From Gammaproteobacteria bacterium RIFCSPHIGHO2_02_FULL_42_13 (GTDB taxonomy: Bacteria > Pseudomonadota > Gammaproteobacteria > UBA12402): a stretch of 44,382 bases of DNA. Under the pieces are notes generated by a model, which saw nothing but the letters and a program-made list of their open reading frames with translations, was not told the origin of the DNA and did not search any database. A program made the position numbers and the translations under genes. The stretch covers positions 3,066-47,447 of the forward strand of contig MGXQ01000064.1 in assembly GCA_001801405.1 (NCBI GenBank), in the 5' to 3' direction. Positions 8,863 to 42,928 of the stretch are shown one piece after another. Each line of letters begins with the position of its first letter. The stretch's first letter is position 1.

Positions 8863-9033
8863 TCAACAGCTCAGAGCTGCGGCAAGTAGGTGTCTGGAAA
8901 GACTTGCTATGACTGCTTTCCCGCAGCTCAGAGCTGCGGGGATTAAAATGTTGTATGATATTGCTTACTTCGCAGCTCTGAGCTGCTAAAAACCAGTCAC
9001 AGCCTGCCTCTCATCTGCTCAGAGCTGCAGAGG
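8863..9033. repeat. composite array of 4 CAGCTC[A/T]GAGCTG palindromes with conserved inter-core modules
   Basis: Cores lie at 8867-8879, 8923-8937, 8972-8986 and 9015-9030. The reverse complement matches 15031-15195 with about five mismatches by eye. Confidence 0.85.
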
Positions 9034-13152: not shown

Positions 13153-13224
13153 GACGAAATTATAACCGAATCGATATGCCAAGACCACGCCAAATATGAT
13201 ATATTTAGGTTCAGGCAAGGTGAT

Positions 13225-13350
13225 TTCCTACAAAACTTTAATCCTCGCAGCTCTGAGCTGCTATCAAGCAGGTGGGGCAAGGAATAGAAAGGGGCTCATT
13301 CTCGCAGCTCTGAGCTCGCCGAGTTTATGCTCGCAGCTCAGAGCTGCAGC
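13225..13350. repeat. array of 3 GCAGCTC[T/A]GAGCT(G/C) palindromes plus an AAACTTTAATCC module
   Basis: Cores lie at 13247-13261, 13304-13318 and 13333-13347. The TTTAATCC(N)GCAGCTCTGAGCTGC module is shared with 15113-15137 and 17961-17986. Confidence 0.8.
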
Positions 13351-13368
13351 AAATAACACGAGGTACGC

Positions 13369-15018
13369 ATGACAACCATCGCGAAAACCAACATCTCTGG
13401 CCAAACGCTATTAAACGATAGTCGTTTCAATAAAGGCTCGGCGTTTACCTCGGCCGAACGCGAACTATTTAATTTAACTGGATTATTGCCGGCGCGCGTT
13501 GAAACGATCGCAGAACAATGTGCTCGCTGTTATCAAGAATTTAAACGACAACCTACTTTGCTCGATAAAAATATTTATCTCACTAAAATACTTAATCAAA
13601 ACGAAACCCTATTTTATAAATTAGTTTATGATCATGTCGCAGAAATGTTACCCATCATTTACACGCCCGTTGTCAGTGAAGCTGTCGAGCATTTTAATCA
13701 CATCTTTCAGCGACCGCGTGGATTATTTCTTTCTTATCCAGAACGCGATTCGATGGAAGAAGTTTTAAGGAGATACGATCACGCCAATATCGACATCATT
13801 ATTGTCACCGATGGTGAACGCATCTTAGGTATCGGCGATCATGGCGTGGGCGGCATGAGCTTATGCATCGGAAAACTTGCGCTTTATACATTATGCGCGG
13901 GCATACATCCTTCGCGCACCTTACCCATTTGCATCGACATCGGTACAAATAATAAAACATTATTAAATGATCCATTATATCTTGGCTGGCGCCATGAACG
14001 TCTCACGGGACAAAAGTACGATCATTTTATTGATCAATGCGTCATGACAATTAAAAAAATATTTCCCGATGTTTTGTTGCATTGGGAAGATTTTGGCAGA
14101 GATACGGCGCGCAAACATCTCGATCGCTATCAAAACACGATGTGTACGTTTAATGATGATATGCAAGGCACCGCGGCCGTTTCTTTTAGCGCTATCGAGT
14201 CTGCATTACAAACTATACGCCAGGATATCACACAACAATGTATTGTGTTTTTTGGCGCAGGCACCGCAGCCACCGGCATTGCAGATTTTATCGTAAAAAT
14301 TATGGTAAAACGCGGACTGTCATTGGAAGCCGCTCAAGCTCGCATTTGGTTATTAGGCCGCCGCGGTCTCTTGATGCAAGACATGGATAATTTAATGGAT
14401 TTTCAGAAACCGTATGCCAAATCAAAAAATGCGATGGCAGAATGGAAATTAAAAAATGTTTCACATATTGACTTATTTGAAGTGGTACGTCACGTTAAAC
14501 CAACTATTTTGGTGGGTTGTTCTACTGTAAAAGGCGCATTTACCGAAACGATCATAAAAACAATGGTCAAATACACCCCGCGCCCAATTATTTTAGCGCT
14601 ATCGAATCCCAATTCAAAAACCGAAGCAACGCCACATGATTTATTAAATTGGACAAATGGCAAAGCGTTAATCGCAACCGGCAGTCCTTTTCCCGATGAA
14701 GTAATTAGCGGCAAAAAAACGCCGATCGCACAATGCAATAATTTATTTATTTTTCCGGGGCTTAGTTTGGGCGTGATCTCAGTGAAAGCAAAACGCATTA
14801 CACATGACATGTTTGTTGTGGCGAGTCATACACTCGCCAAACATTCTCCCGCACAACAGGATGCCTATGGATCGCTGTTACCTGATTTAACTCATATTCA
14901 AGAAATCTGTTTCGATATCGCTGTAGCCGTTGCCGAACAAGCGATCAAAGAAGGCGTGGCGCATAAAACTGATGTAGAAAAAGCGATTTTAGCTAATATT
15001 TGGGAACCCAATTATTAA
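13369..15018 (+). CDS. maeA: NAD(P)-dependent malic enzyme
   Basis: 549 aa with LLNDSRFNKGSAFT, VTDGERILGIGD, FNDDMQGTAAV, GAGTAATGIA and LSNPNSKTEA. Confidence 0.9.
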   Translation: MTTIAKTNISGQTLLNDSRFNKGSAFTSAERELFNLTGLLPARVETIAEQCARCYQEFKRQPTLLDKNIYLTKILNQNETLFYKLVYDHVAEMLPIIYTPVVSEAVEHFNHIFQRPRGLFLSYPERDSMEEVLRRYDHANIDIIIVTDGERILGIGDHGVGGMSLCIGKLALYTLCAGIHPSRTLPICIDIGTNNKTLLNDPLYLGWRHERLTGQKYDHFIDQCVMTIKKIFPDVLLHWEDFGRDTARKHLDRYQNTMCTFNDDMQGTAAVSFSAIESALQTIRQDITQQCIVFFGAGTAATGIADFIVKIMVKRGLSLEAAQARIWLLGRRGLLMQDMDNLMDFQKPYAKSKNAMAEWKLKNVSHIDLFEVVRHVKPTILVGCSTVKGAFTETIIKTMVKYTPRPIILALSNPNSKTEATPHDLLNWTNGKALIATGSPFPDEVISGKKTPIAQCNNLFIFPGLSLGVISVKAKRITHDMFVVASHTLAKHSPAQQDAYGSLLPDLTHIQEICFDIAVAVAEQAIKEGVAHKTDVEKAILANIWEPNY

Positions 15019-15028
15019 CGCGAATTCC

Positions 15029-15236
15029 GGAGCAGCTCTGAGCAGATGAGAGACAGGCTGTGACTGACTTTTAGCAGCTCAGAGCTGCGAAGTAAGCAAT
15101 ATCCTACAACATTTTAATCCCCGCAGCTCTGAGCTGCGGGAAAGCAGTCATAGCAAGTCTTTCAAGACACCTACTTGCCGCAGCTCTGAGCTGATAAAAT
15201 CCAGTCATAGCATGGATTTTATCAGCTCAGAGCTAA
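15029..15236. repeat. composite array of 6 CAGCTC[T/A]GAGCTG palindromes; an inverted copy of 8863-9033 plus an extra doublet
   Basis: Cores lie near 15032, 15074, 15123, 15181 and 15223. The last doublet is CAGCTCTGAGCTGATAAAATCC...GGATTTTATCAGCTCAGAGCT. Confidence 0.85.
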
Positions 15237-15258
15237 TTTTTATTTTTTTTGGAATTTG

Positions 15259-15431
15259 GTAACTATTCACCGCAAAACTTAAAACACGGAGAACGTTCAG
15301 ATTTTGGATGATTTTGGGTGAAAAATCGATGAGAAAGCGGAGTGTACACGATAGTACATGAGCATTTTGAAGAGATTTTTCACCCAAAAGCACCAAAATA
15401 TGGACGTTCCTTGTTTGTGCTGAATAGTTAC
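15259..15431 (-). mobile_element. 173-bp MITE, copy 1 (GTAACTATTCA... terminal inverted repeats), flanked by the 8-bp TSD GGAATTTG
   Basis: GGAATTTG occurs at 15251-15258 and 15432-15439. One mismatch in 173 nt versus the reverse complement of 34218-34390. The internal arms are self-complementary. Confidence 0.85.
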
Positions 15432-15447
15432 GGAATTTGATGTTACA

Positions 15448-15967
15448 ATGGCATCCATACATCAACGACTGAGAAAAATTATGCCAAAGATAAAAACAAA
15501 AGACATAGAATTGCAACCGATGGGTGATGTTGCCGATGCAGCACCAATAACGCTGGATTCCGCAGTGCTACAAGCAACACTAGCAGAAATGCAAGCAAGA
15601 ATAGCAGCGGAGATGAATGCTACATTCGCGCGATTAGCGGCACCCCCCCCTTCCTATTGACGCATTATTTGATCCCCAAAAAAATAGTCCAATTGATTTC
15701 GGAGCACAGCTCACGTTACCCGAGCCTAATCCCCAAGACAATAGACCAATTGATTTAGGAGCACAACTCATGTTACCCGAGCCTTTCCCTGAACCACGAG
15801 CATATTCAACCTTGATGCACAGGCTCATAGAATCGGGGTTTTTTCATCGCCCTCCTGTTGATTTAACTTGGCTCATCCGCAATCCTAGTGGCGCCCGTGT
15901 GGAAGAATGCGATGTCCCACGAGGCTGGCAGCCATCTGCGCCTGGTGCCGGCGGTGATCCGAGCTAA
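15448..15967 (+). pseudogene. orphan gene split by a C8 homopolymer (frameshifted or phase-variable); the product contains two 19-aa tandem repeats
   Basis: Frame-1 ORF 15448-15660 ends 8 nt after C8 (15643-15650). Frame 2 is open from the tract to 15967. Loss of one C would fuse them into a protein of about 170 aa. Confidence 0.5.
15671..15784 (+). repeat. 2 x 57-bp tandem repeat (DPQKNSPIDFGAQLTLPEP / NPQDNRPIDLGAQLMLPEP)
   Basis: A direct comparison of 15671-15727 with 15728-15784 shows an in-frame repeat in the downstream reading frame. Confidence 0.8.
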
Positions 15968-17840: not shown

Positions 17841-18046
17841 CAACAGCTCTGAGCTTACAATTTTTTACTTGGCAGCTCTGAGCTGCGACAAGCCAGTCAC
17901 AGCAAGGGTTTTATCCCGTCTCGCAGCTCTGAGCTGTGGTGTAGGAAATATCATACAAAATTTTAATCCGCGCAGCTCTGAGCTGCTACAACAGAGGCGC
18001 AGCAAGCCTCTCCCGCCCCTTGATTGCGTCAGCTCTGAGCTGCGAT
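17841..18046. repeat. array of 5 same-orientation CAGCTCTGAGCT(G) palindromes inside the hydrogenase operon
   Basis: Cores lie at 17844, 17872, 17923, 17972 and 18030. The CCAGTCACAGC and TTTTAATCC modules are shared with other loci. Confidence 0.85.
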
Positions 18047-34072: not shown

Positions 34073-34104
34073 CTCATCATATCAAATTTTGTTCAAATAT
34101 CAAC

Positions 34105-34170
34105 CTGCGCAGCTCTGAGCTGCTACAAGATAGGCTGTGACTAGATTAGAGCAGCTCAGAGCTGCGCTGC
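34105..34170. repeat. REPIN-like doublet: GCAGCTCTGAGCTGC - 27 nt - GCAGCTCAGAGCTGC
   Basis: Cores lie at 34109-34123 and 34151-34165. About 3 mismatches in 57 nt versus 36039-36095, in the same orientation. Confidence 0.85.
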
Positions 34171-34217
34171 TTGCTATTTAGATAAGATGCGTTATCATTT
34201 CCGTACTCAAAAAAAAT

Positions 34218-34390
34218 GTAACTATTCAGCACAAACAAGGAACGTCCATATTTTGGTGCTTTTGGGTGAAAAATCTCTTCAAAATGCTCATGTACTATCG
34301 TGTACACTCCGCTTTCTCATCGATTTTTCACCCAAAATCATCCAAAATCTGAACGTTCTCCGTGTTTTAGGTTTTGCGGTGAATAGTTAC
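34218..34390 (+). mobile_element. 173-bp MITE, copy 2, flanked by the 8-bp TSD AAAAAAAT
   Basis: AAAAAAAT occurs at 34210-34217 and 34391-34398. The TIRs are GTAACTATTCAGCACAAA / TTTGCGGTGAATAGTTAC. Confidence 0.85.
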
Positions 34391-34410
34391 AAAAAAATAG
34401 GAAAATAAAA

Positions 34411-36030
34411 ATGCCCATTCACAAAATTGATTTACTCAACATTATTAGGCAACAATATGACGAACGAAAAGGCGCAATACGCAAACGATTAAACACTCGT
34501 TCATTCGGCATGAAAAAACTATTTAACATCATCGATGCATTTCCCGATGGTGATCTCTCACAAAAAGATTTAATCAAAATTCTGAATGGAATTTTCGGCC
34601 TTTCGTCTTGGAATCGTAATACACTAACCGGCGAAATTGCGAACCAAATGAGAGAGCATATTCTCTGTCAATTAGATACTCACTTGCATCGCATATTTTT
34701 TCTCGACAACTGGACAGCCCTATCGCTCGGCAAAGGCGCGGCTGAAGATAATTTTTCGATCGGTTTTGCAAAAAGTTTATTAGCTCGAATCCTCACTCTA
34801 GTAAACAAAGATGAAAAAGAAATATTCCGAGAAGAATTTATCAAAATTTTAGAACGCAATCCTAACTTGCGTATGGCAATATTATCAGAAACCACACAAC
34901 ATACTCATGAAATACAACAGCGGGCGCAACGTGCCATTAAAAATTTACTCGATGGCGACCCGATACTCGCAACACTCGTACATAAAACATTTAAGCGCGC
35001 CAACAAACAGTTATTCGAGGAACATAGGCAAAGCTGGGCCAGACGCGGTTTAACGAACGCCGAGCAAATTTTCTCATCCCTCAAAACCGATACCGCACGC
35101 AACGAATTTGCCACTCATTTGTTAGCACAGCCGCTCGATCCCAATATGGAACTCGATATTGTCGCGGCAGATGGGAAGTTATGCCAAACAATACTGACCA
35201 GCGTCATCCCTATAAATGAGTCACGACATCTTTATTTTCAAGCTCGCAATCGACAAATTCACTCTCAAAATGACATTAAAAACACACTCGGTTTTTCCAA
35301 AATATCCCCCAACTCCATTCCCGCTGCGCTCGCTGCTGTCGTATTGCGCGTTAAATCACTCTGGAAACAAGTCGAGCCATCCTGGTGGGATAATTTTCGT
35401 CATTTGGTAGGCTGGGAATCAGAACATATCTCGACGTTGCGTAAAAATAACCCTTTATTTGAAATCGCACTGGACTCGCCTAAAAATAAATTAAATTCAT
35501 TATATAGAGCATTTTGCAATAGCGCTCTGAGCCATCCAGATCGATCTGTTATCGCACATCACTTATGCGAAACATTGTTAGCTGAAACAACCCACGCTAA
35601 TTTTACCGCCTGGATGACGCGAACTGATTTAGAAAATCAACAGTTGCTCGCTTACGCTTTAACCGTCGGTCGCTATCGCTTAATATTATCACTACATCAT
35701 GGCGTAGCGGATTTGCGAGAACTACTTCCGACATCTGATTTACAAACAGCAATTAATCACATGGGGGACAATGTGGATCCATTTATTCAATCCAAAATAC
35801 CGCCAATCAGGGAGCCTTTGCGCACACGCGTAAAACCTGTCATTCCTGGATTGAGCTCTGCCTTTATGAGATGCGGTTTAGGCGCAGGTCGCGACACCCA
35901 TCCAACCGTTGAACAAGATGAACCTGCTGCTGGCGCTACGGCTGATACAGCTTCGCCACATCCTCAACCCGCCCCGGCAAGCAAAAACCCACATGCACCG
36001 CTTTTAGCAAGATCAACTCACTCTCGCTAA
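34411..36030 (+). CDS. orphan 539-aa protein with no recognisable domain and a Pro/Ala-rich GC-rich C-terminal tail; effector-like
   Basis: A long uninterrupted ORF with AGGA 8 nt upstream. It is bracketed by direct repeat doublets and preceded by the MITE. Confidence 0.6.
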   Translation: MPIHKIDLLNIIRQQYDERKGAIRKRLNTRSFGMKKLFNIIDAFPDGDLSQKDLIKILNGIFGLSSWNRNTLTGEIANQMREHILCQLDTHLHRIFFLDNWTALSLGKGAAEDNFSIGFAKSLLARILTLVNKDEKEIFREEFIKILERNPNLRMAILSETTQHTHEIQQRAQRAIKNLLDGDPILATLVHKTFKRANKQLFEEHRQSWARRGLTNAEQIFSSLKTDTARNEFATHLLAQPLDPNMELDIVAADGKLCQTILTSVIPINESRHLYFQARNRQIHSQNDIKNTLGFSKISPNSIPAALAAVVLRVKSLWKQVEPSWWDNFRHLVGWESEHISTLRKNNPLFEIALDSPKNKLNSLYRAFCNSALSHPDRSVIAHHLCETLLAETTHANFTAWMTRTDLENQQLLAYALTVGRYRLILSLHHGVADLRELLPTSDLQTAINHMGDNVDPFIQSKIPPIREPLRTRVKPVIPGLSSAFMRCGLGAGRDTHPTVEQDEPAAGATADTASPHPQPAPASKNPHAPLLARSTHSR

Positions 36031-36034
36031 TCGC

Positions 36035-36097
36035 CCACGCAGCTCTGAGCTGCTACAAGATAGGCCGCGACTGGATTAGAGCAGCTCAGAGCTGCTC
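36035..36097. repeat. REPIN-like doublet, a direct copy of 34105-34170
   Basis: Cores lie at 36039-36053 and 36081-36095. Confidence 0.85.
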
Positions 36098-36162
36098 ATT
36101 GTGCCTAAAACGCGAATTCGTTATAATGCAAACATCGCATCTAATGAATAGGATATGCACCG

Positions 36163-42857: not shown

Positions 42858-42928
42858 CTGCGCCAGCTCTGAGCTGATATCAGGCGCGCTGTGACTGCGT
42901 TTTATAGCCATCGCCAGCTCAGAGCAGT
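42858..42928. repeat. REPIN-like doublet CAGCTCTGAGCTG - 37 nt - CAGCTCAGAGC
   Basis: Cores lie at 42864-42876 and 42914-42925. The loop contains the GCTGTGACTG module seen at other loci. Confidence 0.8.

Follow-up and report, generated by a model that had tools for sequence, protein, structure and literature searches.

The ERIC/IRU elements of enterobacteria and the Correia elements of Neisseria are palindromic over their whole length of 100-170 bp, and can fold as RNA when they are co-transcribed with neighbouring genes. MITEPsy1 has IS5-like ends and a 4-bp duplication, and its mobilisation was shown by entrapment (PMC3189936). In the IS66 family, the ends of canonical members start GTAAGCG (PMC11946415). 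ISDge4 of Deinococcus geothermalis, a member of the ISBst12 group of IS66, encodes one transposase of 449 aa and has an 8-bp repeat, and its transposition has been observed (PMC12898284). We found no MITE described for the ISBst12 branch of IS66 in the literature searched. The 173-bp repeat considered here is a genuine MITE, non-coding and recently active in its genome, and it raises the question of which transposase moved it.

The window, by which we mean the whole stretch of 44,382 nt that was analysed, comes from contig C64 of the source genome (G000; 1.48 Mb, 84 contigs, 42% G+C). Identical contigs occur in the source samples Ga0209343, Ga0209541, Ga0155964 and Ga0155284. A preliminary description, made from the letters of the window, had reported two copies with a single mismatch, perfect 8-bp direct repeats that differ between the copies, inverted-repeat ends, and a non-coding interior in the form of a long hairpin. 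All of these features are found where they had been placed (Table 1). The one difference between the copies is at element position 21, which is T in copy 1 and C in copy 2 and all others; copy 2 is identical to a copy on another contig (G000:C39:26470-26642). Folded as DNA, the whole element gives one long hairpin of -42.5 kcal/mol (z = -9.6), and as RNA one of -74.8 kcal/mol (z = -11.3); none of 200 shuffles folded as well as the element. There is no transposase gene, and the ORFs that overlap the element are mechanical read-throughs. A repeat finder stretches the similarity between the copies 21 nt beyond the left end, the extra sequence being T-rich target DNA only. This T-rich sequence is also present at the empty copy 2 site of a sister species, and the duplications therefore do not belong to any longer duplicated flank.

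Table 1. Positions of the MITE copies and their parts in the window
Feature	Positions	Strand	Remarks
MITE copy 1	15259..15431	+	173 bp, sense, left end GTAACTATTCACCGC first; single hairpin
Copy 1, left target-site duplication GGAATTTG	15251..15258		Read directly; same as 15432-15439
Copy 1, right target-site duplication GGAATTTG	15432..15439		Read directly
Copy 1, left terminal inverted repeat GTAACTATTCACCGCAAA	15259..15276	+	16/18 against right end; 11/12 against single-ORF IS66 consensus GTAACTATTCAG
Copy 1, right terminal inverted repeat, reading GTAACTATTCAGCACAAA on the - strand	15414..15431	-	12/12 against IS consensus
Copy 1, conserved hairpin-tip core GAGAAAGCGGAGTGTACACGATAGTACATGAGCATTTTGA	15331..15370	+	40 nt; recurs across the class
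MITE copy 2	34218..34390	-	173 bp, inverted relative to copy 1
Copy 2, target-site duplication AAAAAAAT (+ strand)	34210..34217		Read directly; single in the sister species' empty site
Copy 2, target-site duplication AAAAAAAT (+ strand)	34391..34398		Read directly
Copy 2, conserved hairpin-tip core	34279..34318	-	Same sequence as 15331-15370

Both insertions are close to the starts of ORFs. Copy 1 has on one side a REP-like cluster, which follows a malic-enzyme gene, and on the other a small ORF, and its right duplication ends 9 bp before the ATG of that ORF at 15448. Copy 2 separates a promoter-like site (34171-34198, 9/12 matches) from a 539-aa ORF with its ATG at 34411. The insertion has left intact the AGGAAA that precedes this ATG, and the start of the ORF is present in the sister species without the MITE. 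A search for promoter-like or terminator-like signals inside the element found none. Just 3' of the small ORF that follows copy 1 are two tandem 57-nt units with 89% identity (15672-15784).

The two copies in the window are not the only ones. A search of the source genome found 12 full-length copies, three more that are cut by contig ends, and about five short internal-deletion derivatives, one of which is a 64-bp element on contig C10 with an 8/8 duplication, AAAATTTC. Ten of the full-length copies are intact; of the other two, one is degenerate at its right end and the other has diverged (87% identity). The ten intact copies have a mean pairwise identity of 97.9%, two being identical, and each has its own private 8-bp direct repeat, nine matching at 8/8 positions and one at 7/8. 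Nine insertions are intergenic. The exception, on contig C36 (G000:C36:932-1104), is 89 nt before the stop codon of a gene for a BepA-like secreted protein of ~498 aa, and it exchanges the last ~30 residues of the protein for seven that the MITE encodes.

Do the sites exist in an uninterrupted form? Pre-insertion sequences were rebuilt for ten sites of the source genome and searched for in relatives, and the junctions were aligned base by base. In the sister species of the same genus (G001), four junctions are uninterrupted, with exactly one 8-mer at each. At the site of window copy 2 the 8-mer is AAAAAAAT in both species, and at the C36 site it is TTCTAATT in both, the empty site being 93% identical. 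At the C35 site the source genome has AAAAGATC and the sister species AAAAAATC, and at the C3 site the two read ATCTGTTC and ATCGGCTC, respectively. For copy 1, only the left flank of the site is conserved in the sister species, which bears MITE copies of its own elsewhere, at 84-93% identity. The recent transposition that had been proposed from the window is thus borne out by the 12 copies and their 97.9% mean identity, by private duplications at 10/10 intact copies, and by the four empty orthologous sites.

The surroundings of the element contain many other repeats. REP-like palindrome clusters built on CGCAGCTCTGAGCTGCG are found in the window at 8867-9028, 13198-13365, 15030-15236, 17844-18042, 34097-34166, 36038-36098 and 42864-42905, and the 162-nt composite at 8867-9028 is 97% complementary to 15032-15193. 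These clusters are unrelated to the MITE in sequence, yet they occupy the same intergenic regions. Most contigs of the source genome end in multi-copy repeats of 35-200 bp, with up to 82 matches per end, and small repeat families are unusually dense in this genome of 1.48 Mb. Might the element itself be a palindrome of REP/REPIN type that a RAYT (HUH) transposase has spread, as with the neighbouring CAGCTCTGAGCTG palindromes? It is palindromic, intergenic and multi-copy, and it adjoins REP-like clusters. Every intact copy, however, has a private 8-bp duplication, its inverted ends of 16-18 bp are shared with a DDE-type IS, and no sequence relation to the neighbouring REP-like family is seen. 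The duplications and the empty sites refute a REP/REPIN identity, and we give this explanation practically no chance of being right.

The preliminary description had assigned the element to the IS66 family and had predicted an autonomous partner elsewhere in the genome. The one canonical IS66 of the source genome, on contig C11 (about 13320-15839), has tnpA, tnpB and a 536-aa tnpC frame, and there is a further IS66 fragment on contig C39. A MITE copy is 3 kb from the canonical element on C11. Could this resident IS66 cross-mobilise the MITE? Its transposase is the only intact one of the IS66 family in the genome, and it has in common with the MITE the GTAA of its ends and the family's 8-bp duplication. 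The agreement of the ends goes no further than those four bases, since the resident ends, GTAAGCGCCGCATCAACC and ATAAGCGCCGCACCAACC, read GTAAGCG or GTAAGCC and those of the MITE read GTAACTA; the MITE's inverted repeats therefore do not start GTAAGCG as those of canonical IS66 do. The order's remaining IS66 copies likewise have ends of GTAAGC type. The resident element is moreover single-copy, its flanks have no matching 8-bp duplication, and its TnpC can hardly be aligned with the single-ORF transposases described below (E = 0.44). Finally, the sister species has many MITE copies and yet no IS66 transposase at all. Mobilisation by the resident IS66 is in our opinion very improbable. The C39 fragment was considered as a remnant of the right IS and rejected, as it has a GTAAGC end. 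Inside this fragment is a run of N (G000:C39:1295-1321) with the same 44-nt sequence on either side, which looks like a scaffolding or masking artefact.

A far better match to the ends of the MITE is found among single-ORF members of the family. A metagenome scan with the end pattern gave, among the matches listed, many that are ~35-120 nt from contig edges and also complete single-ORF elements, 1.56-1.72 kb long, whose two ends carry GTAACTATTCAGC. In the five best-resolved of the metagenome elements (1.69-1.72 kb) the ORF is 470-476 aa long, and there is neither tnpA nor tnpB. In six of seven elements the stop codon of the ORF is inside the right inverted repeat (...GCT GAA TAG TTAC). The encoded protein matches PF03050 (DDE_Tnp_IS66) with E about 1e-45, has an N-terminal DUF6444, and scores 290 bits against the NCBIfam model NF033517, 'IS66 family transposase', for which the cutoff is 180. 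The 18 nt at the right end of the MITE are identical to the ends of ~1.7-kb ISs in L164, L225, L135, L121 and L178. The metagenome contigs that bear the ISs belong to other organisms.

A second scan, of species genomes, was based on the protein and left the ends unconstrained. It found 563 relatives, and at 57 of the best 80 loci, GTAACTATTCAG-type ends are present, 1.57-1.87 kb apart. In the consensus of these 57 pairs of ends, positions 1-12 are conserved at 89-100%, and the MITE agrees with it at 12 of 12 positions at the right end and 11 of 12 at the left, including the group-specific terminal sequence GTAACTnnTCAGC. Perfect 8-bp duplications flank 23 of the 52 evaluable IS loci, among them several differently flanked copies within single long-read assemblies. 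Many short-read IS loci are without matching duplications; their mismatched flanks are probably due to chimeric assembly across copies. The duplications are rich in A+T for the ISs (80%) and the MITE (78%) alike, versus 58% for the genome. The IS66 affiliation is thus upheld, and can be refined to the single-ORF ISBst12 group: autonomous elements of ~1.7 kb that end in GTAACTATTCAGC encode a PF03050 / NF033517 transposase, and ISs that share the termini of the MITE do exist, in other organisms.

How, then, would the element have moved? A non-coding and fully palindromic MITE would be incapable of moving by itself. To judge from the sequence comparisons, the single-ORF, ISBst12-type group of IS66 DDE transposases is the one that recognises its terminal 12-18 bp (GTAACTATTCAG...). 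Most likely such a transposase, acting in trans, binds both ends and inserts the element into A+T-rich DNA, and the repair of staggered cuts made 8 bp apart would leave the 8-bp duplication. We infer that a transposase of this type did the moving and was present in the lineage recently. Mobilisation in trans by an ISBst12-type transposase that recognises the ends of the MITE is the best explanation that we can offer, and we consider it very probable.

Where is the transposase now? The assembled genome does not confirm the prediction of an autonomous partner. A single-ORF IS66-type transposase is absent from the source assembly, where the best tblastn match (E = 0.44) is to the canonical TnpC, and that assembly holds no autonomous IS that shares the ends of the MITE. 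None was found in the order's other MITE-bearing genomes, all of them draft bins, or in G062, G258 and G018, for which the search had no positive control. A genome of the same bacterial family (G011) has a decayed homologue with 38% identity, which is interrupted by an IS of GTAAGCG type and retains no intact end. This G011 assembly, of 8.3 Mb and with 5% contamination, gives 88 IS66-family transposase hits in two size classes, and its genus-mate, of 2.4 Mb, has a single 44-residue fragment; the abundance in G011 is either a massive IS expansion or the mark of a mixed bin.

One reading of these absences is that the MITE is an orphan, its ISBst12-type transposase having since been lost from the lineage, so that the copies seen today are immobile relics. 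The transposase is indeed missing from the source assembly and every related MITE-bearing one, the sole homologue in the bacterial family is decayed and cut by another IS, and short deletion derivatives and degenerate copies of the MITE exist. Set against these points are the signs of recent movement, namely the mean identity of 97.9%, the two identical copies and the four empty sites in the sister species. The source assembly moreover has no contig below 5,013 bp, so that a collapsed multi-copy IS of 1.7 kb would have been filtered from the bin, and the relatives are likewise fragmented drafts. Because all of the assemblies are draft bins, the absence of the partner is not decisive. We regard the loss of the transposase as a possibility of some weight, if a rather unlikely one. 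The contig-end repeats of the source genome were inspected as candidates for the collapsed IS, and only short repeat families were seen.

The ends recur on other small elements. With up to two mismatches allowed, the end pattern occurs 30 times in the source genome, 18 times in the sister species, and nine, seven, seven and three times in G004, G005, G012 and G006, while a reversed-pattern control gave 0-1 per genome. An element of ~145 bp in G004 shares the terminal 14 nt and has an 8-bp duplication (AAAAAAAG) and an unrelated interior. It is the ends, rather than the interior, that define the family. Unpaired MITE-like ends in the relatives were considered as possible IS ends, and all proved to be those of smaller elements, 32-197 bp long and with 8-bp duplications. 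The smallest of these, GTAATTATTCAGCAAAAATGCTGAATAATTAC (G005:C60:10960-10991; L082), has 32 bp and a perfect 8-bp duplication, AAAAACTC; it consists essentially of two inverted ends, and suggests that about 14-16 bp per end are enough for insertion. A MITE family of ~149 bp with the same GTAACTATTCAGCAC ends as the window MITE, 8-bp duplications and a different interior was seen in L114, L172, L197, L212, L214 and L219, on contigs of 50-56% G+C from metagenomes Ga0265295 and Ga0302252, and three more elements with GTAACTATTCAGCAC ends are 443-529 bp long. A metagenome contig that resembles the left end of the MITE beyond the inverted repeat (L127) was rejected as an unrelated, GC-rich contig without a transposase, and three matches in viral contigs were rejected as unrelated to the MITE.

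Is the MITE simply an IS that has lost its transposase gene? The sequence shared by MITE and IS is limited to 24 nt or less at each end, and descent of the interior from the IS cannot be shown beyond those ends. Other genera and families have the interior without these ends. On this comparison, simple deletion from an IS does not account for the element: to IS-like ends of at most 24 nt is joined a hairpin module, the tip of which is common to other MITEs of the class.

The tip recurs widely. Of 301 genomes sampled evenly over the class, 46 contain its core; they represent 45 of 271 genera. The core also matches Halomonas and Klebsiella plasmids. Across 32 genera the core is at least 90% conserved, a figure that is inflated to some degree by the collection of the sequences through their similarity to the query. 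The consensus is GA[GA]AAAGCG[GC]AGT[GT]TACA-loop-GTA[CA]ATGAGCATTTTGA. Nearly all of the stem (99%) is paired; five of ten pairs show compensatory changes, a number reached by none of 500 shuffles, and one G.U pair is kept in 27 of 29 sequences. The sense strand folds as RNA better than the antisense strand in 30 of 31 genera, by ~12 kcal/mol. In the arms, with the tip excluded, G:T is more frequent than A:C (87 vs 54, p = 0.007; p = 0.08 by a per-element sign test).

The tip is found in two shells with different ends. In the first, which we call shell A, it is part of a hairpin MITE of ~140 bp with CAGGCTGTTGAAA ends and 4-bp YTAR flanks (CTAG, TTAA, and the non-palindromic TTAG/TTAG), present in nine genera. 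Carriers of shell A include L318, L329, L331, L334, L038 and L040, from other families of the class, and in this shell the tip is bordered by two conserved blocks that are not complementary, GACAAGGC and AACGC[CA]G. The second, shell B, has ISBst12-type ends and 8-bp duplications, and is represented by the window MITE and by a 174-bp relative in G062 with the duplication GAATGGGA.

These properties could mean that the tip is a functional, strand-specific module, of RNA or of single-strand DNA, carried as cargo by at least two unrelated MITE classes and spread through at least 45 genera of Gammaproteobacteria. We put this forward tentatively, and with more doubt than belief. If it is true, the window MITE is one vehicle of an undescribed and widespread element, and the part under selection is the tip rather than the transposon ends. 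A search with the covariance models of Rfam 15 gave nothing at the gathering score, and only sub-threshold, microRNA-like noise at E <= 10; a literature search by tip sequence turned up unrelated primers only. Relative to neighbouring genes, three cases are co-oriented and nine anti-oriented (p = 0.15), if anything the reverse of what an RNA role would lead one to expect.

A related idea is that the element is mainly such a structured module, that its ends are only a vehicle, and that the copies are kept for their effect on neighbouring genes. The recurrence of the core in 45 of 271 genera and in two unrelated shells, the compensatory changes and the retained G.U pair, and the asymmetry of strands in both folding and arms all speak for this idea, and both window copies are 9-12 bp from an ORF start. 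The window copies face their ORFs with opposite ends, however, and the orientations among genes show no bias in the expected direction. The lack of an Rfam family match and of a promoter or terminator signal within the element also tells against this idea, as does the gathering of tip sequences by query similarity, which inflates their conservation. That the copies owe their presence mainly to such an effect seems to us unlikely.

What does the element add? It provides a clean and well-documented MITE family for the ISBst12 branch of IS66, a group for which the transposition chemistry is still poorly characterised. The sister species could plausibly have come to differ in regulation and coding through the recent burst of insertions, which fell beside gene starts and, once, in a BepA-like gene at its 3' end. 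As the missing transposase reminds us, autonomous ISs are systematically lost when bins are filtered by size. The tip, conserved across many genera and found in MITEs whose ends differ, is a candidate for a new functional motif of RNA or DNA. In sum, the element is an ordinary kind of MITE, the autonomous partner is unaccounted for in the lineage, and the unexplained part is the conserved tip.

The comparison with the known systems can now be drawn. Like the ERIC/IRU and Correia elements, the window MITE is a palindrome over its whole length, whereas its ends and the length of its duplication differ from theirs. A resemblance to ERIC/IRU was also rejected on the grounds that the 143-nt tip-bearing shell A relative L318, used as the query in place of the window element, gave no blastn hit (E <= 0.01) among 5,426 E. 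coli genomes. With bacterial MITEs in general it shares its small size, the absence of a transposase, inverted ends that are conserved among the copies, private duplications of fixed length, dispersed copies and empty sites. MITEPsy1 (PMC3189936) is similarly short, non-coding, multi-copy and mostly intergenic, with inverted ends shared with an IS and duplications of fixed length; it depends on another transposase family and has another duplication length, and its mobilisation was demonstrated, whereas that of the window MITE is deduced from comparison. Canonical IS66, the resident copy included, has in common with the MITE the GTAA start and the 8-bp duplication, and the autonomous ISBst12-type relatives of the MITE also encode PF03050 proteins; canonical elements differ in that their ends diverge from those of the MITE after base 4 and that they are ~2.5 kb long with three ORFs. 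From the autonomous members of the ISBst12 group the MITE differs in its length of 173 bp, its lack of a transposase, its unrelated interior and the absence of an autonomous copy from the same assembly. The terminal sequence and the 8-bp duplication are nevertheless those of this group, and the ends of ISDge4, GTGACTACTCAGCA and GTAACTGCTCAGCA, each agree with the MITE end GTAACTATTCAGCA at 12 of 14 positions (PMC12898284).
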